From: an uncultured delta proteobacterium
Lineage (GTDB): Bacteria; Myxococcota_A; Polyangia; Fen-1088
NCBI GenBank assembly: GCA_963782545.1
Contig: CAWAKD010000007.1
Span: forward strand, 1,104,378-1,168,377
DNA: 64,000 bases
Direction of reading: 5' to 3'
Shown here: positions 9,144 to 61,848 of the stretch, in pieces
Position numbering within the stretch: the first letter of the stretch is position 1
How the letters are laid out: each line of letters begins with the position of its first letter
The notes under the pieces: generated by a model
Told to the model about the DNA's origin: nothing
Databases searched by the model: none
What the model saw: the letters and a program-made list of their open reading frames with translations, nothing else
Translations under genes and position numbers: made by a program

Positions 9144-11741
<2,598 letters not shown>

Positions 11742-23207: not shown

Positions 23208-24473
23208 ATGCTCGACATTCGACTCGTCCGTGAAAAACCCGATGAGGTCCGCGCAGGGCTGCGCAAGCTGGCCGCGGACGTGGACCTCGACGCCCTGCAT
23301 CGCCCTCGACGAGGGCGTGCGCAAGCTCAAGAACGATTCCCAGGCCATCCAGGCCGACCAGAATCGCCTGTCCAAGGAAATCGCCAAGGCGCCCAGCCCC
23401 GAAGCGCGTGCGGAGATCAAGGCCAAGGGCGCCGCACTCAAGGAAAGGAACGAGCAGCTGCTCAAGGATCTGGCCGCGCAGGAGGCCGCTCTCGACGAGA
23501 AGTTGCTGGAGTTGCCCAACCTGCCCCACCCGTCGGTGCCCGTGGGCAAGGATGAAAGCGAAAACCGCATCGTGCGCGAGGAAGGCGCGAAGCGCGCCTT
23601 CGCCTTCACCCCGAGGCCCACTGGGATCTGGGTCCGCGCTGGGGCATCATCGACTTCGACCGCGGGGTCAAGATCTCGGGCAGCCGCTTCTACGTGCTCA
23701 AGGATTGGGGCGCCCGCCTGCAACGCGCGCTGATCTCGTTCATGCTCGACCTGCACACCCGCAAGCACGGCTACACCGAGGTCCTGCCGCCCTACATGGT
23801 TCGACGCGAGTGCCTGGTGGGCACGGGCAATCTGCCCAAGTTCGGCGACAATCTGTACCACGACGCCAGCGAGGATTTCTGGTTCATCCCCACCGCCGAG
23901 GTGCCCGTCACCAACCTCTACCGCGATGAGGTTCTCGACGGCGCACGGCTCCCCATCAAGCACGTGGCCTTCACCGCGTGCTTCCGCCGCGAGCAGATGG
24001 CCGCCGGCCGCGACACCCGCGGCATCAAGCGCGGCCACCAGTTCGACAAGGTCGAGCTGGTCAAATTCGTCAGGCCGGAAAACTCCATGGACGAGCTCGC
24101 TGGGCTGCTCTCCGACGCGGAGGATGTCCTCAAAGCGCTGGAGCTCCCCTACCGCGTGGTCGAGATGTGCACCGGCGACCTTTCCTTTTCGGCTATGGTC
24201 AAGTTCGACCTCGAGTTGTGGGCGCCCGGCTGCGGCGAATGGCTCGAAGTCAGCTCGTGCTCGAACTTCGGCGACTTCCAGGCTCGTCGCGCGAAGATCC
24301 GTTTCAAGGATGGCAAGGAGAAGAACCGTTTCGTCCACACCCTCAACGGCTCCGCTTTGGCCTTGCCAAGAACCCTGATTGGTGTTCTCGAAACCTACCA
24401 GCGGGCGGATGGAAAGCTAGACGTCCCCCTGGCGCTTCGACCATACTTCGATGGTATCGACGTGCTCGGGTAG
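23208..24473 (+). CDS. serS: Seryl-tRNA synthetase. The reading frame is broken twice (about 23300 and 23618) and restored.
   Basis: N-terminus MLDIRLVREKPDEVRAGLRKLAADVDLDAL (frame 0); coiled-coil arm IALDEGVRKLKND...AFAFTPRP (frame 1, track ORF 22930..23733); catalytic core HWDLGPRWGIIDFDRGVKISGSRFYVLKDWGARL...FRREQ... (frame 0, ORF 23694..24473). Confidence 0.85.
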
Positions 24474-24479
24474 TCCAAC

Positions 24480-25349
24480 GTGGAAGGCAAGCCGCTCGCA
24501 CTGGCCGTTTTCTTCTCTGGCGTCTTCGCCATCGCCATGGGTGTGCTGATCCTCCATGCCGCCAGCGCGCCGCCACCCACGCCCAAGCGCCCGGAACCCC
24601 CGCCGCCCCCCTCGGCGATGATCAACTCGGACATGCGCTTTTCGGTCGTCTACTACAAGGCGCTCATCGAGCAGGATGCCAAGTCCTACGGCATTGCGCC
24701 GCCCTCCTACGAGGATCTCTTGCAACCCAACCCCTACTTCGATGAACTGCGCGAACGGCAGCACCTGCACGTCAAGTCGCCCATCGAAACCCGTCATCTG
24801 CGCATCACCCTGGAGGTACTCAAGGAGACCACGATCATCGAGTCCCATTCCCTGTCTACCGACCACCTGGTGTTACGCATCGAAAATCGCACGCCGCTCT
24901 TCCTCGCCTACCGCGTCCGCACGACGGTTCCCGACAAGCAGAAGTGCGCGATGAAGGCCGAGCTGGCGCACAACGCCATCGCCCTCGAACCCGAGCAGAC
25001 CATCCTGCGCACCGAGTGCCTGTTTCGAAAGGATGCGCGCATCGACGTCACCAGCATCGAGGTCATCGAATTGCCCGCTCTTTCCGCCTACTACGTGTCT
25101 CGCGTGCCACCCAACAGCACCTTCTACGATCCGAGAACTTCGGCTGGCCACACGCCCCCACGAGGAGTCATGTGCCCGCAGACCTTCTCCTGGCGAGACA
25201 TCAGGGAAGGCATCGAAAAGAAGCAACTGGGCTGGCGCGACGTGATGGACTTCTATGCGCGTCACAACTGCAGTGAATACTCATTTTTCAAGTCCTATCG
25301 TTACCGCAGGGATCCATCGGAACCCCTGCCCGCCCGTTCACTCGACTAA
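24480..25349 (+). CDS. Hypothetical protein with a single N-terminal TM anchor.
   Basis: ORF with a GTG start; hydrophobic LALAVFFSGVFAIAMGVLIL followed by a Pro-rich stretch. No recognisable domain. Confidence 0.5.
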   Translation: MEGKPLALAVFFSGVFAIAMGVLILHAASAPPPTPKRPEPPPPPSAMINSDMRFSVVYYKALIEQDAKSYGIAPPSYEDLLQPNPYFDELRERQHLHVKSPIETRHLRITLEVLKETTIIESHSLSTDHLVLRIENRTPLFLAYRVRTTVPDKQKCAMKAELAHNAIALEPEQTILRTECLFRKDARIDVTSIEVIELPALSAYYVSRVPPNSTFYDPRTSAGHTPPRGVMCPQTFSWRDIREGIEKKQLGWRDVMDFYARHNCSEYSFFKSYRYRRDPSEPLPARSLD

Positions 25350-25383
25350 CCCTTTGATATTCGCTACATTACCCGAATCGGTT

Positions 25384-25728
25384 ATGACCAAGGCTGACCT
25401 CATCGCGGTGGTCGCGGACAAGCTCAAGTTCCCTTGGGCACGTGCGGAGCTTCTCGTCGATCAGATTTTTTCTTGTATGACCCAGGCCCTGCAGCAGGGG
25501 GAAGGCATCGAAATCCGCGGCTTTGGCAGCTTCACGGTGCGCGAGTACAAGGCTTACGAGGGACGAAATCCGCGCACCGGCGATACCGTCCATGTCAAAC
25601 CAAAGCGCCTTGCCTTCTTCAAGGTCGGCAAAGAACTGCGCGAGCGCGTGAACCACGGTCGCTCCTTTGCGCCACCGGTCAGCGTCCCCGGGCCACCCAG
25701 CAATCCGCTGCCGCCAGACAACGCATGA
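25384..25728 (+). CDS. ihf: Integration host factor / HU family DNA-binding protein with a short Pro-rich C-terminal tail.
   Basis: Internal Met of ORF 25255..25728: MTKADLIAVVADKL...GEGIEIRGFGSFTVREYKAYEGRNPRTGDTVHVKPKRLAFFKVGKELRERVN. Confidence 0.85.
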   Translation: MTKADLIAVVADKLKFPWARAELLVDQIFSCMTQALQQGEGIEIRGFGSFTVREYKAYEGRNPRTGDTVHVKPKRLAFFKVGKELRERVNHGRSFAPPVSVPGPPSNPLPPDNA

Positions 25729-39242: not shown

Positions 39243-39370
39243 CGTGTGGTCCGGCTACGCCTCGACCAGCATCACCAGGGTCTCGGCCAGCACTCCATCG
39301 TGCGCCATGGCCTCGGCAGCACCTGGCGTCGGGAAAAGAACGGCCTTCGGATCTGCGACGGTCACGCCCG

Positions 39371-40456
39371 TCAGTAGCGCTCGCTGTCGTCCTTGGGCGA
39401 CATCGGCCAGGCCTGGGTGGCACGTCCGTTGATGGTGGTTCCGCCGAACACGATGGGGGCACCGTTGGCAATGAAGTCGGCCGGGAAGCTCAGGGTCGGC
39501 TTCGACAGGGCGTCCAGCTTCGCGACGTGGGCGGCTTCGAGACGGACGTCAAGCCCGGCCAGATTGTCTTCCAGTTGCGCAAGCGTCCGCGCCCCGATGA
39601 TGGTCGAGGCGACACCCGGACGCGCCTGTACCCACGCCAGCGCCACCCGCGCCACCGTGGTGCCCAAGGCCTTGGCAATTCTGGCCATCTCTTCAAGAAG
39701 GTCGTACGCCTTGTCGTTGAGAGCGCTCAGTGCCCAGGGGCCGCGGCCGGCGTCGTGCTGACCGTGTTTGTCGCGCGTGTACTTTCCCGACAGCACGCCG
39801 CTCTTCAAGGGCGACCACGGGGTCACGCCGAGGCCCAGCTCGAGGGCCATCGGAATCAGCTCGCCTTCCACCGTGCGTTCGAGCAGCGAATACTCGATTT
39901 GCAGTGCGATCAGGGGCGCCCAGCCGCGAAAGCGGGCGATGGTTTGTGCCTCGGCACATTTCCAGGCCGGCGTATCCGAGAAGCCGATGTAGCGAACCTT
40001 GCCTTCCCGGACCAGGTCGTCGAGGGCGCGCAGGGTTTCTTCGATGGGCGTGGTGGCGTCCCAGGCGTGCATCCAATAGAGGTCGATATACGGCGTCTGC
40101 AACCGTCGCAAGGACTGCTCGCACGCCGAAACAATCGCCTTGCGGTGCGAGCCGCCGCCGTTGGGATCGCCACGGTAAAGGTTGCTGAGGAATTTCGTTG
40201 CCAAAACCACGCGGTCGCGTTTGCTCGGGTGCCGGCCGATGTGGTCCCCGATGATCTTCTCCGAATGGCCCTTGGTGTAGGCGTTGGCGGTGTCGATGAA
40301 GTTGCCACCCCGTTCGAGAAAGCGATCGATGATGGCCTGCGAGTCGGCCACCGAGGAGCCCCAGCCCCAGTCTTCCCCGAAGGTCATCGCGCCAAGACAC
40401 ATGGGCGAAACACGCAAGCCGGATCTTCCAAGTGTCACGTAGTTGTCGAGTGGCAT
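39371..40456 (-). CDS. Aldo/keto reductase.
   Basis: LGAMTFGEDWG..., IDTANAYTKGHSE, and a standard AKR catalytic tetrad context. Confidence 0.9.
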   Translation of the reverse strand: MPLDNYVTLGRSGLRVSPMCLGAMTFGEDWGWGSSVADSQAIIDRFLERGGNFIDTANAYTKGHSEKIIGDHIGRHPSKRDRVVLATKFLSNLYRGDPNGGGSHRKAIVSACEQSLRRLQTPYIDLYWMHAWDATTPIEETLRALDDLVREGKVRYIGFSDTPAWKCAEAQTIARFRGWAPLIALQIEYSLLERTVEGELIPMALELGLGVTPWSPLKSGVLSGKYTRDKHGQHDAGRGPWALSALNDKAYDLLEEMARIAKALGTTVARVALAWVQARPGVASTIIGARTLAQLEDNLAGLDVRLEAAHVAKLDALSKPTLSFPADFIANGAPIVFGGTTINGRATQAWPMSPKDDSERY

Positions 40457-40676
40457 GTTCCCTGCCTTTCACGCGGGATCTACCCAATCGCTCCGGGGCG
40501 TGCCAGCAACAAAGTAGTTGATAAATTGGCAAATCCCGTCAAGCGGCGGCTTTCGTCACTGCTCTGTCCGGGTTCCCAATCCCATGCCGGCGCCAATGTG
40601 ATGAATCGCACGGTCGGTACGCCCTCCTCGGGGCGTGCGACTTGATGAAAAATCCGTATTGCACGAAGCTCGTATC

Positions 40677-41444
40677 ATGTTCATTCGACGATTGCGATGG
40701 TTCGGGCTTCTCGCGCTTGCTTGCGCTGCCACGGGGAGCGCGGGCTGCGGCGGTTCGTCGTGTGGCAAATGTGCCGGCCCAATGCCCTACGACACACGCA
40801 CGGTCACGCCGGACGAGCAGACGGCGCTCGGCTTCTCGGCCAATGACGTGAAGGCCCGCCTCGTCGGGCCGTGGGTGGGAACCCTGGCCTGGGTTGCCGA
40901 TCCGGCCACGGTCACAGCCCATCCCGCCGCCGGAACGACCACGGTCACGATCGCTCTCCGCTACGCCTTCGACGAGCGATCGATCATGGCCTACGAGCCG
41001 TCCGCGGTGTACACCGACGCGTCCGCTTCGATCCTGCATATGGAGCTTCCGATCCACCTGCTCGTCACCACCGCCGATGGCGCGCTCGCCGAGGACCACC
41101 TGACGGCCATCAGGGCCACGGGCGCCTCGCAGGGTACGCTTCTCGACCTCTTCGGCGCCACACGGGGCACGCCGGTGCAGGGAAGCTACACCGCGACGGC
41201 AGTGGACGCTGCTCGCTACCTCGGCACCGAGAACGAATTGAAGGTCGAGCTCGCTCCCGAGACCGCGACCGGCGGCCTCATCTTGTACGGCCTGGGAAGC
41301 GCCAAGAGCGCGGACGGCACATCGGACATCAAGATCGCCGACGAGCTTCCCGTCGCGACCTTCGCGGCCGCCGCCATCGCGGACATCGCCCAGGTCGATA
41401 GCGGTGCCGGCCCGGTGGACGGAGCGGTCTCGGCTGATCGATGA
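40677..41444 (+). CDS. Hypothetical lipoprotein.
   Basis: MFIRRLRWFGLLALACAATGSAGCGG lipobox. Confidence 0.55.
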   Translation: MFIRRLRWFGLLALACAATGSAGCGGSSCGKCAGPMPYDTRTVTPDEQTALGFSANDVKARLVGPWVGTLAWVADPATVTAHPAAGTTTVTIALRYAFDERSIMAYEPSAVYTDASASILHMELPIHLLVTTADGALAEDHLTAIRATGASQGTLLDLFGATRGTPVQGSYTATAVDAARYLGTENELKVELAPETATGGLILYGLGSAKSADGTSDIKIADELPVATFAAAAIADIAQVDSGAGPVDGAVSADR

Positions 41445-41532
41445 CCGCCGCGCAAGCGGCCCAAAGCAGGCGCCCGTCGGGCATATGCGACCAAGCGTTG
41501 TCTCGGCGGCCTTTGCGATGTATGGTGAGTGT

Positions 41533-41760
41533 ATGGCGCGTCTCACTTCAACCACGGTTCGACTAGGAGAGGATGATATCCGAGCTTTGAAGAAGGCTCG
41601 TGCTGCTGGGCATTCCGCTTCGGAGCTTGTCCGAAAGGGGTTGCGCGTTGTGGCCTCGCGGTACTACTCGGGCCGCCGCGCCCCTACGACCGGTCTGTTC
41701 GAGTCGACCGACAGCAAACTAGGCGACGAGTCTCTGCTCTTAAAGGATCTCAAGGATTGA
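41533..41760 (+). CDS. vapB: VapB-like ribbon-helix-helix antitoxin.
   Basis: Internal Met MARLTSTTVRLGEDDIRALKKARAAGHSASELVRKGL; overlaps vapC as TTGA. Confidence 0.6.
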   Translation: MARLTSTTVRLGEDDIRALKKARAAGHSASELVRKGLRVVASRYYSGRRAPTTGLFESTDSKLGDESLLLKDLKD

Positions 41761-42188
41761 AGTCAGCACTTGTCGCGGATACCGGTGGACTCCTCCAGGC
41801 ACTCGCGTGCGACCGAGCCGGTGCGCCAAGCTTTCCGGAGTACGAGGAGGCGCTGACGTCAGCGAGCTCAGTAATCGTGCCTGGGCTTGTCCTCGCCGAG
41901 GTTGACTACTTTCTCAGAGACAACCGTGCAGCGATGAGAAGGCTGATCGCGGACATCTTCGATCCAGAAACACGATATGAGTATGAACTGCCGCTATCGT
42001 CCGACATCGCCAGATCCATAGAACTGGACGCAAGGTTCGCAGGGCTCAGCCTCGGCCTGGTTGATGGCACCGTGGCCGCAGTGGCTGAACGACGGCGCGT
42101 CTACCGGGTCTTGACGACCGATCGGCGCGACCTTGGTGCCATACGAATCGGACCTCGCCTGTCGCAGGCCCTTGAATTGGTTCCATGA
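41757..42188 (+). CDS. vapC: PIN-domain toxin VapC.
   Basis: Conserved acidic residues (ALVADTGGL, ...VDGTVAAVAERRRVYRVLTTDRRDLGAI). Confidence 0.75.
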   Translation: MKSALVADTGGLLQALACDRAGAPSFPEYEEALTSASSVIVPGLVLAEVDYFLRDNRAAMRRLIADIFDPETRYEYELPLSSDIARSIELDARFAGLSLGLVDGTVAAVAERRRVYRVLTTDRRDLGAIRIGPRLSQALELVP

Positions 42189-42579
42189 AGGTGAGAGCAG
42201 GTCGGAACCGCGTGGAGATCCCTGGGTCCGATCGTGGTTAGCTCGGTGGGGCTGACTTCTGGATTCAGTCTCTAGCCGCCCGTTCGGGCCAAAGTGGCGC
42301 GTTGGTCGCCGTCGAACCCGGCGTTGAATTGACCGCGGCGGTGAAAGGCGTGCCACTGCCCGCCGAGGTCGATTTCCAAGTGGAGCTGGCCCGGTCGCAC
42401 CGACGGCGATCGGTTCCCCGGATCTCGATGCTATCTCTCGGAAATGTCGTGCGGCGGGCTTCGCCGCTGAACGGCAATGCGTTGGCAGTCGCGAGGACTC
42501 TTGTCATGTATCCGAGATCACAGCCAGCGTTTGCTCTGACTCCTGGGTGAAGCTACGCTGTTTGGAGAGGAACATCCCT

Positions 42580-42984
42580 ATGAAGAATCGCCTTTGGTTT
42601 GGTGCGCTCTTGGCAGTCGTCATCGCCGGGAGTTCGATTTCAGGATGTGGTGCTGGCCGAAAATGTCCAGCTGGATGCCCAGCGACCTATATGTCTGTCG
42701 TCTTTGATATTATGTCTTCTGCGGATGGAGGAGTAGTGAGTGACGTTGAAGTCGCCTTTTCTGGTCCATCCGAGGGCAACATGAAATGCGAAACCACAGA
42801 TGCGGGGACGGCATGCTTCTGGCCAAGCGGGCCGGTGACAGAAGGGACGTACTCGCTCCAGATTTCTGCTTCGGGCTACAAGGCGGCAAAGATCGATGCG
42901 AGGATGACGATCATTCCGGATCCGCAATGTGGTTGTACCGGCGCTGCGCTGAAGCCGTCCCAAGTAACTCTTGATCCTCTTTGA
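42580..42984 (+). CDS. Hypothetical lipoprotein in the low-GC island.
   Basis: MKNRLWFGALLAVVIAGSSISGCGAG; GC about 52%. Confidence 0.5.
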   Translation: MKNRLWFGALLAVVIAGSSISGCGAGRKCPAGCPATYMSVVFDIMSSADGGVVSDVEVAFSGPSEGNMKCETTDAGTACFWPSGPVTEGTYSLQISASGYKAAKIDARMTIIPDPQCGCTGAALKPSQVTLDPL

Positions 42985-43011
42985 CCAGGACATTCGCAGA
43001 CGGTGCGCCGC

Positions 43012-43191
43012 CTAACCGCGCGTTGAACGCGCAATCGTTGATATCACCACCTCGGGATGCACACGTGGCCCCGGCTCGGTTCCCGCGGAAATCGCGACCG
43101 CTTTCGCCGGATCGGCAAGTTGGTTGAAGAGCGCGGCCGCCATTTGCGACCGGCCGGCATTGTGAACACACGCAAATAGAATGGTCTTCAA
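43012..43191 (-). pseudogene. arsC: Arsenate reductase (LMW-PTP type ArsC): N-terminal fragment only (59 codons).
   Basis: AGGAGG RBS, TTG start, then MKTILFACVHNAGRSQMAAALFNQ...ISAGTEPGPRVHPEVV (Cys-X5-Arg P-loop). Stops after about 59 aa; no continuation in any frame. Confidence 0.5.
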
Positions 43192-43324
43192 GATTCCTCC
43201 TGGGAAGTTGCCACGAGCTGCGCCGGCACGGCATACCAGCGACGGGAGCCGACCCCGAGCCCCATGGCCAGAAATATCCACAGGGTGAGATGGCGATCGA
43301 CGCGCGAGAGCCGCCGGGTTTCGC

Positions 43325-44215
43325 TCACGGTTTTCTGGCCCGGACAAACGCGCTCATGACCGCGCCATCGAGCGCGGCGAGGGCCGGAGTCGGGTCGCTC
43401 CCGCAGCACGATGACGACGCCATCTCGGCCGCGTCGTCCTTGCTGTAGATCCGGGTCGCCTCGACCGTGACGTCGTGAAAACCGGCCGCGCGCAGCTTGC
43501 CGACGTAGTCGGATTCCACCAGGGCGCCCGCCACGCATCCTGTCCACAGGTTCAGGGATCCGCGCACGTCCTCAGGCAATTCACGACGAAGCACGATGTC
43601 GGACACGGCGAATCGCCCACCAGGCTTGAGCACGCGAAATGCCTCGCGCAGCACCTTGTCCTTGTCGGCCGACAGGTTGATGACACAATTCGAGATGATC
43701 ACGTCCACCGCGTTTTCCGGCAACGGGATGTCCTCGATGGCTCCCTTCAAGAACTCGACGTTGGTGGCGCCTGCCTTGGTCTTGTTCTTCTCCGCGAGAT
43801 CCAGCATCTCGTCGGTCATGTCGAGCCCGTAGGCCTTGCCGGTCGGCCCGACCCTTCTCGCGGACAGGAGCACGTCGATGCCGCCCCCGGCGCCGAGATC
43901 GAGGACGATTTCGCCCGGTCGTAGCTCGGCCAGCGCGGTCGGGTTGCCGCAGCCGAAGGACGCCAGAAGCGCCTCTTCGGGCAGGCCCTCGGTCTGCTCG
44001 GCGGCGTACAGGTCGCGTGTGATGGGATCGGTGCCTCCCATGCCGGCCGCCTTGGAGCCGCAGCAGCAAGGCTTGGCCCCCCGGATGACTTCCTTCACGG
44101 CCTGGCCGTAGCGCTCCTTGACGACCTCACGGATATTCTGCGCGGACGCAGGTTCGCCGGCGGAACAACGGGTCGATCCATGGTCAGGGTTCATGACGAC
44201 GAGGCGGGTGGACAT
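43325..44215 (-). CDS. arsM: Arsenite S-adenosylmethionine methyltransferase.
   Basis: AAGGAG RBS; SAM motifs [35 protein letters not shown]; conserved Cys pairs. Confidence 0.85.
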
Positions 44216-44289
44216 TTTGTTCTCCTTTATCGATGTTTCTCGATATAGCGGGCAACCGATGGATGATGAATCCTTGGGGGCAAGAACCT

Positions 44290-44694
44290 TCAGTCCGCGA
44301 ACTGGTCGGCAAACTGGAAAAGCTGCGCGCGTACGCTCTTGTCCACGGCGTAGTAGACCCACGTTCCCCGACGCTCGGCGGTTACCAGGCCCGCCTCGCG
44401 CAGCAGCCTCAGGTGATGCGAGATGGTGGGCTGACTCAAACTCTTGACGTGATCCTCGATCTGGCAGACGCAGACCTCGCCGCCCGCCGCGGCCAGAAAC
44501 CCGAGGATCGTGAGTCGGGTCTCGTCGCCGAGTGCCTTGAACAACCCGGCAAAGGTGGAAAGATTCCTGAACTTCGGCTTGGCACGCGGAGCACAGCAAG
44601 CGATTGCTGGTTCTCCTGGCTTGACGATGGCGAGAGGTCGGGGCACGCAGAGAGCATGGCGTCTATATCGACCGCTGTCAATATAGAAAATCAT
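44290..44694 (-). CDS. arsR: ArsR/SmtB-family metalloregulator.
   Basis: HTH with the metal-binding CVC (GGEVCVCQIEDHVKSLSQPTISHHLRLLREAGLV). Start codon uncertain. Confidence 0.75.
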   Translation of the reverse strand: MIFYIDSGRYRRHALCVPRPLAIVKPGEPAIACCAPRAKPKFRNLSTFAGLFKALGDETRLTILGFLAAAGGEVCVCQIEDHVKSLSQPTISHHLRLLREAGLVTAERRGTWVYYAVDKSVRAQLFQFADQFAD

Positions 44695-58782: not shown

Positions 58783-58956
58783 GGTGAGCCACGAGGCTCC
58801 CCTACCAGGGGCCGAACGAGAAATTTCCGCATGGGGCACTCGAAATTGTGAGGGCCCAAGCCCCCGAGACCCGCGAGCGAGGCCGAGAATCGAGCGAAGA
58901 TGGGGTGCGATTCGCGTGGCCCAGATCTTGCTTTTCGCAGGAGCCGAGGAGCCATT

Positions 58957-61848
58957 ATGACGAAGCGAGCCGGATATTCCCTTCAGACCTCTGTCCTTGG
59001 CGGTGCTGCCATCCTTATACTTGCCGGCTGTGGTGGGATCACCCCGGCTGGTGGCGCGGGGGGCAGTGGAGGTGGCGCGGGCGGTGGTGCAGGTGGCGGT
59101 GGTAGCGGCACGAGCGGTGGTGCCGACGCGGGTGCTGCTGTGGATGGCGGCAGCCTTGATAGTACCGTCAGCCCGCCGTCGAGCCTCGCCGCGTACACGC
59201 TCAGCTACCGCAGCCAAGTGCGTGTCCCCGCGTCCGGTGCGGTCATGAGCTACGACGACTTCGCGGCGCAGGTCAGCCGATTGGACCCGCTCGCAGCCAA
59301 GCGCTGTCCGGTCAGCAACGACGCTGAATTTCAGACCGCCGTCGACGCCTTGGGCGGGATCAACTGGACCCACCCCGTCGACATCCTGAAGGACCTCAGC
59401 CAGCCTCCCCTCTACCGTGGGCATATTCCCCCCGCGCCACCCTACCCAGCGACGAGCGCGGCGGGTGCAACCAAGGATTCTGCGACGCCCACCATCGAGC
59501 GGCCCGACCTGGTCGGATACCAAGACAACACCGCCATCTTCCTTTCCCAGCGCCATGGCCTGCTCGCCGTGAACACCGCGGGGGAAAGGCCCGTGCTGAG
59601 CTGCGCCCTCAAGCTGCCCGGCAGTCCCAAGTACTTCTTCTACCACGGCAATGAAATCGTCTTGCTCGTCAATGGCATGTCCGTGAACGAAGCCGCTCTC
59701 CTGCGCTTCGGCGTCACCCCCACGGGCTTCGACTTCCTGGATGCGGTCATGCTGGACAACCAACAGATCCAAGATGCCCGCCTGTTCGACAGCACCCTGG
59801 TGATCTACGCCACCCTCTACAGCCCACCCGCTCCCGCCACGAGCTCCAACCCAGATGGAGGTGGCGTCGCCGCACCCGTCAGGAGCACTGCCGTCGCCGC
59901 CACGGGCGTGAAGGTGACCGTCGTGAAATGGGGCGCGCAGCTCAGCCTCGCCTGGGAGGAGGAGCTACTCAACGATCACACCAGCTCGGATCCCTTGGCC
60001 GGGCAGGACCTCGCTACGGCCGTGCAGCAGCTGACCGTCGGACAGGTCGTGGCGACCTACAAGAGCTACAAGCCATTCATCAGCGCCAGCGATAGCTACT
60101 TCGTGGTCAGCCGCGACGTCAGCAAGACGGTCTTCACCGGCACCCAGTCCCAGACCTATTCCTACTGCACCGCCAGTCACCCAGGCCCGGAGCACAGCGT
60201 GGAGTACTGCTATCCGAAGTACGAGCAGCGTGCGAATCCCGACTACAAGGATCCGCAATCCACCAAGGGCGACTATCCCTGCAACGGAAAGACGCTGCTC
60301 GATTGCATCCAGGAGGCAGCCCCCCAGGTCAGCAAGTACATCTACGTTCGCGTCGGGGAAACTTGCAACACGTACACCTACCACGACTACATCTGCGACA
60401 GCACGGAAACCCGGACGGTATCGTACCCGACCTACCGCACGGATACCGCCACGCAGTTCGTGGTGTGGCGCTACACCGACGGTGACTTCGTCAAGCTGGA
60501 CGAGCAGTTGTTCGAGATGGCGTCCCCAGGGACCACCACCGGCAGCGTGCCCTCGTTGACCTTCACCGGCGCGCCCCTGGAGGTCAGCGGGTCCATCGAC
60601 AGCAAAGGCGACCTGCAGTTCCAGCACGGGCAGTTCTACGTACTCACCAACCAGGGGCAGGCGCTGCACACTCTGCTCATTGCGGGCAACTCCATCGCCG
60701 AGCTGGGCGTGCAAGCGATACCGCGTCAGGGAGGAACCTACTCCTATTCCGGATCGCACTCGACCCTCTTCTCCGACACCCGCATGATGGTCTCGCGCGC
60801 CTACTACGACTCCACGGCGCCGCAAGGGATCAGCACCTGGTCGGACGTCATCATGATGGACCTCGGCGCCCCGTCGTTCCCGACCCAGATCAACCACTTC
60901 GGGATGCCGGGATCCAGCACCCAGCTCATCCTGGCCGGTGCCGGCGTCCTCGGCCCGGGCACGGTGAGCTTCACCAGCAGTGGCGTCGCGCGGAATCTGC
61001 AGAAGATCACGCTGTTCGATCAGGACAACGCCAGCGAGGTGGACAACGTCCTCTTGGGCACCGAATACAACGCGGACTTCACCCAGACCTGGCTCGGCAC
61101 CGCGGACGACCAGCGCATCCGTCTCGACTGGGGCAGCCAGCGTCTGTTCATGCCCTACGCGGGCTATCTTCACGCGCCCGATGCCATCTTCAATCCCGCC
61201 GCGCACCGTCTCAACATCACGGCGGTTGGCGTAGGCACGGGGCTTTCGTCCGAGATGACCTTCAACCTGGTCGAGGACGTCGTTCGCACCGTCTCCACCG
61301 ATTCGTCGCCAACCGCCGGACGCGCGCTGGCCTTTGGTGATTCGTCGATCTATGCCTTGGGCCAAGGCGCGCAGGGCTGGTCGCTGGACGTCCTCGAGGA
61401 ATACGCCACCCCCATCGCCGTGTATCGCATCAACGACACAGGCGACGTACACGCTCGCATCGACCGGATCGGCGCGCGCTGCGAGATTTCGACCTTCAGC
61501 GGGAGTCTCAACGCGTTCGCCCCGACTCAGCTGGCCACGGGGCCGACCATCGCCTGCCCGGAGTCTGGCTCGCCGATGGCCATCGGGCTCGACATCGTCT
61601 TCTCCGGCTCATCGACCGGCTGGCGCCTCGGTCCCGATGGCCTGTCCATCACGCCGCTCACCGCCGACGAGGTCAAGGAAGCGCTCACCCACGTGCGCAA
61701 TGACGAATACTGCGCGCTCGACGGAACCAAGGACGACGGCACCCCGGTCCCCTACCTCGACGCCGTGCCCACCTCCGTCCAGTGCTTCCCGTGGCAAACC
61801 GGCGTTGCCGTCGGCCCACTGCCTGGTGGAAGCACGGCGACGAACTAG
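58957..61848 (+). CDS. Large (963-aa) hypothetical lipoprotein.
   Basis: GAGGAG RBS; MTKRAGYSLQTSVLGGAAILILAGCGG lipobox; Gly-rich linker; then about 880 aa with no motif I recognise (many Cys, Tyr, Thr). Confidence 0.7.
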   Translation: MTKRAGYSLQTSVLGGAAILILAGCGGITPAGGAGGSGGGAGGGAGGGGSGTSGGADAGAAVDGGSLDSTVSPPSSLAAYTLSYRSQVRVPASGAVMSYDDFAAQVSRLDPLAAKRCPVSNDAEFQTAVDALGGINWTHPVDILKDLSQPPLYRGHIPPAPPYPATSAAGATKDSATPTIERPDLVGYQDNTAIFLSQRHGLLAVNTAGERPVLSCALKLPGSPKYFFYHGNEIVLLVNGMSVNEAALLRFGVTPTGFDFLDAVMLDNQQIQDARLFDSTLVIYATLYSPPAPATSSNPDGGGVAAPVRSTAVAATGVKVTVVKWGAQLSLAWEEELLNDHTSSDPLAGQDLATAVQQLTVGQVVATYKSYKPFISASDSYFVVSRDVSKTVFTGTQSQTYSYCTASHPGPEHSVEYCYPKYEQRANPDYKDPQSTKGDYPCNGKTLLDCIQEAAPQVSKYIYVRVGETCNTYTYHDYICDSTETRTVSYPTYRTDTATQFVVWRYTDGDFVKLDEQLFEMASPGTTTGSVPSLTFTGAPLEVSGSIDSKGDLQFQHGQFYVLTNQGQALHTLLIAGNSIAELGVQAIPRQGGTYSYSGSHSTLFSDTRMMVSRAYYDSTAPQGISTWSDVIMMDLGAPSFPTQINHFGMPGSSTQLILAGAGVLGPGTVSFTSSGVARNLQKITLFDQDNASEVDNVLLGTEYNADFTQTWLGTADDQRIRLDWGSQRLFMPYAGYLHAPDAIFNPAAHRLNITAVGVGTGLSSEMTFNLVEDVVRTVSTDSSPTAGRALAFGDSSIYALGQGAQGWSLDVLEEYATPIAVYRINDTGDVHARIDRIGARCEISTFSGSLNAFAPTQLATGPTIACPESGSPMAIGLDIVFSGSSTGWRLGPDGLSITPLTADEVKEALTHVRNDEYCALDGTKDDGTPVPYLDAVPTSVQCFPWQTGVAVGPLPGGSTATN

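Follow-up and report, generated by a model that had tools for sequence, protein, structure and literature searches.

Integron cassettes outside integrons and the locus under study

Cury et al. (2016, PMC4889954) define a cluster of attC sites lacking an integron integrase (CALIN) by the presence of at least two co-oriented attC recombination sites within 4 kb. The proposed origins of such clusters are the loss of intI, rearrangement, and insertion at secondary sites (PMC4889954). The locus described here belongs near this class. It is a segment of about 1.6 kb (41481-43047) within a 64,000-nucleotide (nt) stretch of DNA from an uncultured delta proteobacterium (GTDB lineage Myxococcota_A; Polyangia; Fen-1088; assembly GCA_963782545.1, contig CAWAKD010000007.1, positions 1,104,378 to 1,168,377). 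The whole 64-kb stretch is referred to as the window, and all positions are given in its coordinates. The segment carries a vapBC toxin-antitoxin (TA) pair and a gene of a predicted lipoprotein, here called lipoB, and it ends against a truncated arsC gene. It is probably an eroded, integrase-less relic of an integron cassette array, with vapBC and lipoB as its remaining cassettes, abutting a decayed arsenic operon. The small co-oriented cassettes, the attC-type sites, the lack of an integrase nearby, the foreign composition and the agreement with the proposed origins are all shared with CALIN. The difference lies in the sites: those of the window are fragments, a pair of half-sites plus a mini site of 33 nt, and their scores are 16-18 bits, as compared with 46-76 bits for genuine sites. 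The segment is best classed as a decayed former CALIN or a CALIN-like relic, which falls only partly within the strict definition.

Four other known systems are relevant. TA cassettes of sedentary chromosomal integrons, e.g., that of Vibrio cholerae, were reported to stabilise the arrays (PMC13108822, PMC11023631). The window resembles them in having a type II TA pair carried as one cassette (seen on L199, one of the sequences fetched for comparison, which are designated by L numbers) among cassettes of unassigned function. It differs in its host, an uncultured high-GC bacterium, in the identity of the pair, which is vapBC, and in its array, which is reduced to two cassettes with no integrase. 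By analogy, the vapBC pair of the window may have played a similar stabilising role. As in other type II VapBC systems, the PIN-domain toxin has four acidic residues and a small overlapping antitoxin gene upstream, whereas the antitoxin fold is putative, its match to RHH_1 lying below the threshold (E 0.026). The arsenic genes share their order, the overlaps of starts and stops, and 71-80% ArsM identity with the arsR-arsM-acr3-arsC operons of L002, L004, L005 and L006, which encode an ArsC of the low-molecular-weight (LMW) phosphatase type, but in the window acr3 has 46 codons and arsC 49. Genomic islands associated with integrases and tRNA genes are similar in their deviant composition and accessory genes, yet the window lacks an integrase and a tRNA gene, and direct repeats are absent from the ends of the island. 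The segment is genomic debris of a kind already known, and not a new system.

The vapBC and lipoB cassettes

The two modules and their genes are as follows.

41474-42198, plus strand: body of the vapBC cassette, 90% nucleotide identity to L199:224-947
41533-41760, plus strand: vapB, putative antitoxin of 75 amino acids, 96% identical to the VapB of L199
41757-42188, plus strand: vapC, PIN-domain toxin of 143 amino acids (PF01850, 25.2 bits, cut-off 23.6)
42490-43009, plus strand: lipoB cassette; homologous genes stand directly after an attC R' box on L082, L091 and L093
42580-42984, plus strand: lipoB, predicted lipoprotein of 134 amino acids; signal peptide and lipobox (ISGC) read from the sequence

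The cassette identity of vapBC is established by L199, a sequence retrieved only by means of the attC motif. The VapB and VapC proteins encoded there are 96% and 95% identical to those of the window, and the pair is bounded by attC sites at 96-196 and 949-1026 (23.7 and 33.3 bits), followed by a third attC at 1457-1544. The homology between the window and L199 starts about 30 nt inside the original 5' end of the cassette and stops 10 nt past the vapC stop codon, exactly where the L199 attC begins. On this comparison, vapBC is identified as an integron gene cassette. The family is widespread: 2695 homologues of VapC, at 75-94% identity, come from Polyangia, Acidobacteriota, Methylomirabilota and also an archaeal metagenome-assembled genome (MAG). 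In the loci L083-L090, only 41515-42188 is held in common with the window, at 77-79% identity on the DNA level.

The first-pass annotation of this DNA, made from the letters without database searches, had proposed an RHH antitoxin, a PIN toxin with a coupled TTG start, and a small lipoprotein gene. The toxin assignment holds, as PF01850 is matched above its cut-off and the vapC TTG start overlaps the vapB stop by 4 nt; the acidic residues D8, E48, D103 and D122 can be read from the protein. The lipoprotein gene was likewise recognised correctly. The antitoxin gene is real and paired with vapC, and a 75-amino-acid partner gene with the 4-nt overlap is conserved beside vapC in L083-L090. Its RHH_1 match (E 0.026, 14.9 bits) stays below the cut-off of 20.5, and a ribbon-helix-helix fold is a possible assignment. 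The vapBC pair may still be active, and it may have helped to retain the segment.

Homologues of lipoB form six clusters only. The window at 42470-43001 is 86% identical to L082:309-848, and the block of approximately 42470-43003 matches attC-flanked cassettes of L082, L091 and L093. The homologous cassettes begin exactly at R' (G/TTrGGCAGTCGCGA..., the slash marking the crossover), and on L093 an attC follows as well. The attC sites beside lipoB homologues number three on L091, two on L093, two on L094 and one on L082, where the site follows a Doc-toxin gene. Such placement identifies lipoB as an integron gene cassette too. The protein belongs to no Pfam or NCBIfam family, with a sub-threshold match to CarboxypepD_reg (E 0.005). 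Its AlphaFold model is a beta-sandwich of low confidence (predicted local distance difference test, pLDDT, 61.6), for which a fold search gave no match with E below 0.1.

Remnants of attC sites in the window

The whole 64 kb was scanned, without filters, with a covariance model made from 40 attC sites. The two highest hits are both on the plus strand, 520 nt apart, and both flank lipoB. The recognised remnants, including one tentative piece, are the following.

42200-42217, plus strand: tentative degenerate attC 5' half (GGTCGGAACCGCGTGGAG), which sits where the cassette attC of L199 begins; the sequence resemblance is weak
42311-42330, plus strand: attC 5' half-site with R'' GTCGAAC, spacer and L'' GTTGAA..., 3 mismatches to the 5' half consensus
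42447-42492, plus strand: attC 3' half preceding lipoB, with L' CCGCTGAAC, spacer and R' GTTGGCA
43010-43044, plus strand: mini-attC (model hit 43010-43042, 33 nt), the best hit in the window at 18.3 bits, E about 0.006

The mini-attC consists of R'' GCCTAAC, the palindrome GCGCGTT-G-AACGCGC, a spacer and R' GTTGATA, with the inner stem (42 model positions) gone. The second hit, 42311-42486 (16.4 bits, E about 0.024), has arms that are not complementary, and it probably consists of two unrelated half-sites. Its 3' part is the remnant that precedes lipoB. There, 42464-42487 has 2 mismatches to the consensus of the 3' half, and the next best site in the 64 kb has 6. The 46-nt remnant 42447-42492 was compared with about 40 attC 3' halves from metagenomes; the identity is mostly 92-95% over 37-46 nt, and 85-90% for the weakest matches. 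These 3' halves belong to a 105-nt subfamily of attC, of which about 59 nt on the 5' side are missing at 42447-42492. Among the direct repeats of the region, the best pair (42307-42328 and 43006-43027, 82%) corresponds to the two attC 5' halves.

The approximately 250 nt between the vapBC and lipoB blocks are attC debris. No homologue of 42199-42446 (248 nt) occurs in any fetched sequence, and this stretch possibly holds the leftovers of at least one deleted cassette. Within it, 42210-42234 and 42407-42431 form an imperfect inverted repeat of 25 nt (76%), with a left arm region that overlaps the possible 5' half at 42200-42217. The 390-nt gap as a structured element was also considered and found unconvincing, with z -2.45 for 42195-42445, a fold slightly more stable than that of shuffled sequences, and -0.44 and -1.0 for the attC-like parts. 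Relics of this kind would probably fall below the thresholds of IntegronFinder. An integron integrase is absent from the 64-kb window, as the first-pass annotation had stated: a tblastn search with the integrase (IntI) of L104 gave a best E of 0.72, and a six-frame scan revealed no tyrosine-recombinase motif.

Composition of the segment and the single-island explanation

The GC content is 0.594 over 41450-43191, with 0.596 for vapBC, 0.621 for the 391-nt gap and 0.543 for lipoB. The stretch of 41481-43047 (1.57 kb) is the GC minimum of the window at such a length, 0.588 as compared with a mean of 0.652 (sd 0.021); windows of equal length with GC equally low amount to 0.4%, and every one of them overlaps it. 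The GC content at third codon positions (GC3) is 0.62 in vapB, 0.63 in vapC, 0.52 in lipoB and 0.63 in the arsC stub, and 0.80-0.90 in the flanking genes. The runner-up among low-GC stretches, 24061-25627 (0.598), reflects amino-acid composition with no foreign origin. The dip of the island differs from it in kind, because the two genes of the runner-up retain GC3 of 0.80-0.83. The segment of 41481-43047 is therefore compositionally foreign, beyond any odd amino-acid content. The GC dip and foreign composition claimed in the first-pass annotation are borne out on recalculation; the depth of the dip is milder than was claimed, since 52-56% is reached in 300-nt windows near lipoB and nowhere else.

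The same annotation had explained the segment as a single acquired TA cassette. In its developed form, this explanation holds that one non-integron island of vapBC and a lipoprotein gene deleted the 3' half of arsC, and that the attC-like motifs arose by chance. A GC and GC3 dip that spans the whole block, the missing integrase and the low attC scores in the window are what such an island would leave. The DNA relatives of the two modules are nevertheless separate, 41515-42188 being matched by L083-L090 and 42470-43001 by L082, and each module is known elsewhere as an attC-bounded cassette (vapBC on L199, lipoB on L082, L091 and L093). The close agreement of 42447-42492 with about 40 attC sites also argues against chance, and the decay of acr3, described below, is independent of the island. 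No att-like repeat links 41440-41460 with 42985-43011, and flanking direct repeats at the island ends are likewise absent, in agreement with the lack of a target-site duplication that had been stated before. The single-island explanation is extremely unlikely. As judged from sequence comparison, the island is instead a mosaic in which two or more independent integron cassettes are combined.

An attC family of soil metagenomes and its integrases

The attC sites used for comparison come from a scan of metagenomes with the motif of the attC 3' half, which yielded at least 120 contigs with 146 full sites on them; 30 of these contigs carry 2-6 co-oriented attC at cassette spacing. The layout of the sites consists of R'' (RYYYAAC), a spacer, L'', a variable loop, L', a second spacer and R' (GTTRRRY). 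In the alignment of 40 sites, 96.1% of the cells are paired, and 9 pairs show compensatory changes, in 54 cells. Such a level was reached in none of 500 shuffles, and slid controls gave 20-48% paired cells. Covariation is strong in L''/L' and in the spacers. Between R'' and R' within a site, it is not above the between-site control, as would be expected from the exchange of the R' box whenever a site recombines. The attC sites that flank lipoB homologues fold as canonical bulged hairpins (z -3.5 to -5.3), and genuine sites of the family score 46-76 bits with the covariance model.

Integrases stand next to arrays with attC of this type. Those of L104 and L183 are recognised by TIGR02249 with 441 and 457 bits (cut-off 265), and on L098 an IntI-like, near-identical sequence is placed likewise upstream of an attC array. 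The attC family is thus identified as genuine and linked to integron integrases. The positions of these genes in the oriented contigs are approximately 9700-10825 on L098, 11074-12162 on L104 and 789-1922 on L183, upstream of the arrays and co-oriented with the cassettes. In the classical integron layout, the integrase is divergent from the cassettes. A further observation concerns L205, on which a 172-amino-acid fragment of a tyrosine recombinase (2419-2934 in the oriented contig, minus strand) lies between attC sites within a cassette array. The host flanks of L098 and L104 have a GC content of 0.68-0.69 and the arrays 0.61-0.63, a relation like that of the window (0.65 versus 0.59). Metagenomes of soil, peat and rhizosphere are rich in this attC family (at least 120 contigs), whose hosts have a high GC content.

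The arsenic operon and its two lesions

Next to the segment, on the opposite strand, lies an arsenic operon with the following genes.

44290-44694, minus strand: arsR, ArsR/SmtB metalloregulator (PF01022, 1.7e-14; NF033788, 92.3 bits)
43325-44215, minus strand: arsM, arsenite methyltransferase (NF008823, 347.6 bits, cut-off 263, profile positions 3-268 of 272), with homologues at 78-80% identity in Myxococcales/Polyangia MAGs
43188-43328, minus strand: acr3 remnant of 46 codons, filling the 133 nt between arsM and arsC
43012-43191, minus strand: arsC stub, 49 genuine codons (43191-43045) and 10 codons of read-through into the attC

The arsM gene is apparently intact. A search for ArsM with one genome per species gave 80 loci, of which the closest come from Myxococcales/Polyangia MAGs with 71-80% identity; in none of the 80 does synteny with the window extend beyond the ars genes. 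The acr3 remnant, which the first-pass annotation had overlooked in describing an arsR-arsM-arsC operon, has a GTG start overlapping the arsM stop and a TGA stop overlapping the arsC TTG start. Full ACR3 is a membrane protein of about 350-390 amino acids, of which the 46 codons in the window fall short. Residues 5-27 of the remnant (RRLSRVDRHLTLWIFLAMGLGVG) match the N-terminus of the L002 ACR3 with a score of 103, which was reached in 0 of 300 shuffles (tblastn E 7e-4). A full acr3 stands at the same position in L002, L004, L005 and L006, and on L004 the order is arsR-arsM-acr3-arsC, with ATGA overlaps between the genes and an ArsC of 138 amino acids. Because the 46-codon reading frame matches the ACR3 N-terminus, the ancestral operon is reconstructed as arsR-arsM-acr3-arsC, in which acr3 has since lost about 320 codons.

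The second lesion is that of arsC. The stub has AGGAGG four nt before the TTG start at 43191 and the P-loop CVHNAGRS (CX5R), and it matches positions 1-52 of 144 of the LMWPc profile (E 2.4e-8). The homology stops at codon 48-49 of about 138 (tblastn to the L004 ArsC: residues 1-48). A search of all frames of the window gave no remnant of the C-terminus; the C-terminal half with the redox cysteines is missing, and the full domain of about 130-140 amino acids is not reached. The ribosome-binding site, TTG start, P-loop and absence of continuation noted in the first-pass annotation are thus all present, and the truncation holds in the alignment with relatives, but of the 59 codons counted there only 49 are genuine and 10 are read-through into the attC.

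Lesions of this kind are not confined to the window. On L003, with 80% ArsM identity, an acr3 stub of 44 codons (10885-11019) keeps other residues (1-20 and 337-349), and arsC is cut at about codon 36, where it adjoins unrelated DNA, a cut different from that of the window. Stubs of acr3 after arsM are also found on L054 (10594-10686) and L020 (10943-11248). Since L003, L054 and L020 carry such stubs as well, the decay downstream of arsM is recurrent and independent of the island. Both the 46-codon stub of the window and the 44-codon stub of L003 are in frame, with the start/stop overlaps with arsM and arsC preserved; such in-frame stubs in two diverged lineages could be selected devices coupling arsM to arsC. 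Among database proteins, the best 120 matches to the N-terminal fragment of ArsC (P0127-P0246) are all 48-104 amino acids long. Many are frameshifted or differ in the cut, and some come from contigs 0.1-2 Mb long; indels introduced in assembly, or a decay of arsC that is widespread, could explain them. A programmed truncation of arsC was considered and rejected, as the cut points vary and many of the short matches are visibly frameshifted.

The confined homology of the operon raises the possibility that the ars fragment is the newcomer. In this scenario, a piece consisting of arsR, arsM, the acr3 stub and the 5' part of arsC was joined illegitimately beside an older cassette relic, and the end of arsC is simply the end of the incoming fragment. 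The ars module is indeed common to the window and L003 only over 43084-44543 (74% nucleotide identity), with different flanks and a different arsC end. The absence of synteny around all 80 arsM loci and the rearrangement of the nearby aldo/keto reductase (AKR) gene relative to close relatives would also fit. On the other hand, the GC3 of arsM (0.83) is native-like, signatures of transfer ends are absent, and the different acr3 residues retained in the window and in L003 suggest independent decay in place. We regard the arrival of the ars fragment as unlikely.

The junction between arsC and the last attC

On the plus strand, the junction reads ...CAATCG/TTGATAT/CACCACCTCGGG..., where G/TT is the crossover point of the mini-attC, between 43037 and 43038. 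The antisense arsC homology begins at 43046, 7-8 nt past this point, and the arsC reading frame runs on through the mini-attC to a TAG stop inside the R'' box. The seven nt between the crossover and arsC are probably not arsC DNA, because HPEVV-I-S-T in the window departs from HPEVV-x-[AV]-M in the ArsC homologues. The same 2.26 kb, from the 3' part of vapB to the 3' part of arsM, is present on an independently assembled Logan contig (run ERR11571143), and for this reason an assembly chimera is unlikely.

The closeness of the crossover to arsC would fit a secondary-site event, in which an integrase acting in trans recombined the attC with a GTT-like site in arsC and the other half of the gene was lost later. 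Insertion at such sites is one of the proposed origins of CALIN (PMC4889954). The TTGATAT after the crossover would, however, encode V-V-I-S-T where the homologues have V-V-x-[AV]-M, which is probably not arsC DNA. Moreover, the 3' half of arsC is absent from the other end of the block and from the whole window, and the attC involved has no inner stem. Such an insertion would call for an additional deletion as well as for arsC sequence that is not native. With these points in mind, recombination at a secondary site is very unlikely. The earlier claim that the insertion of the island deleted part of arsC is likewise not supported: the 3' half is missing at the other end, the adjoining attC is defective, and a deletion or illegitimate joining fits better. 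In a broader sense, the junction may record an event driven by integron recombination or by an attC hairpin that destroyed a resident chromosomal gene. This reading and that of the acr3 stubs as selected coupling devices are, taken jointly, decidedly unlikely.

Surroundings of the segment

No tRNA genes were found in the window and no mobile-element genes in the flanks of the island; searches for tandem repeats and Rfam families were also negative. A promoter and terminator scan gave nothing above chance, and the island matched no plasmids or phages. The gene upstream of the segment (40635-41444, plus strand) encodes a predicted lipoprotein of 269 amino acids with a native-like GC3 of 0.80. 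Neither Pfam nor NCBIfam gave a match for it, and none of the fetched loci has a homologue. Between its stop codon and the start of the homology of the vapBC cassette there are 30 nt.

Further upstream, the AKR gene (39370-40512) is 90% identical at the nucleotide level to JGI contigs (L216-L219). On these contigs, AKR is 80 bp from a homologue (80%) of 58809-61816, a region which in the window is 18 kb away. An Unstab_antitox gene (PF09720) precedes AKR there, on the side that faces the island in the window. The neighbourhood of AKR is rearranged, TA-rich and plastic. The state before the insertion was not recovered from the 90%-identical AKR relatives, as their neighbourhood is rearranged.

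Proposed course of events

The evidence presented above favours a relic of a cassette array, and its probable history can be outlined. An integron array would have been stripped of its integrase and of most attC sites, with two co-oriented cassettes left in place. As only eroded pieces of attC remain, the cassettes would now be fixed, beyond excision by an integrase. The distal end of the relic would have come to abut the 3' end of the convergent arsR-arsM-acr3-arsC operon. This operon would have been decaying on its own account, by an internal deletion reducing acr3 to the 46-codon stub, and by the cut of arsC after codon 49. A single deletion or illegitimate joining would have removed the 3' half of arsC together with whatever followed the last cassette, i.e., the distal part of the array. 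One such event is the simplest account of the junction.

Several points weigh against this history. The attC matches in the window are weak, 16-18 bits with rough E values of 0.006-0.02, as compared with 46-76 bits for genuine sites. The region of 42311-42486 does not fold into a hairpin (z -0.44), and no attC is detectable upstream of vapB. The vapBC homologues of L083-L090, at 85-87% identity, have no adjoining attC; because of these loci, the vapBC family must be taken to live outside integrons too. The 64 kb examined are part of a 1.87-Mb contig, and IntI may exist elsewhere in the genome. Finally, because the locus was not found intact in any close relative, we infer the deletion and the order of events from the arrangement of the remnants. 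A relic of a cassette array beside an operon decaying independently is still the probable explanation of the segment.

Implications

The locus is an example of a small island with no integrase that can be traced to its origin through the same genes in intact cassette arrays elsewhere. It adds a case from an uncultured soil bacterium of high GC content, in whose chromosome integron cassettes, a TA pair among them, lie stranded and decay, and it documents an abundant soil family of attC with an integrase co-oriented to the cassettes. The current understanding of integrons and TA systems is unchanged by it. If the junction does record the destruction of a resident gene by a cassette or its attC, cassettes escaping from their platform would be one cause of the disruption of host genes in Myxococcota of soil. 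For the organism itself, the annotation of the arsenic locus is corrected. Only arsR and arsM are predicted to work, and together they probably still provide regulated methylation of arsenite, with neither arsenite export nor arsenate reduction expected from this operon.

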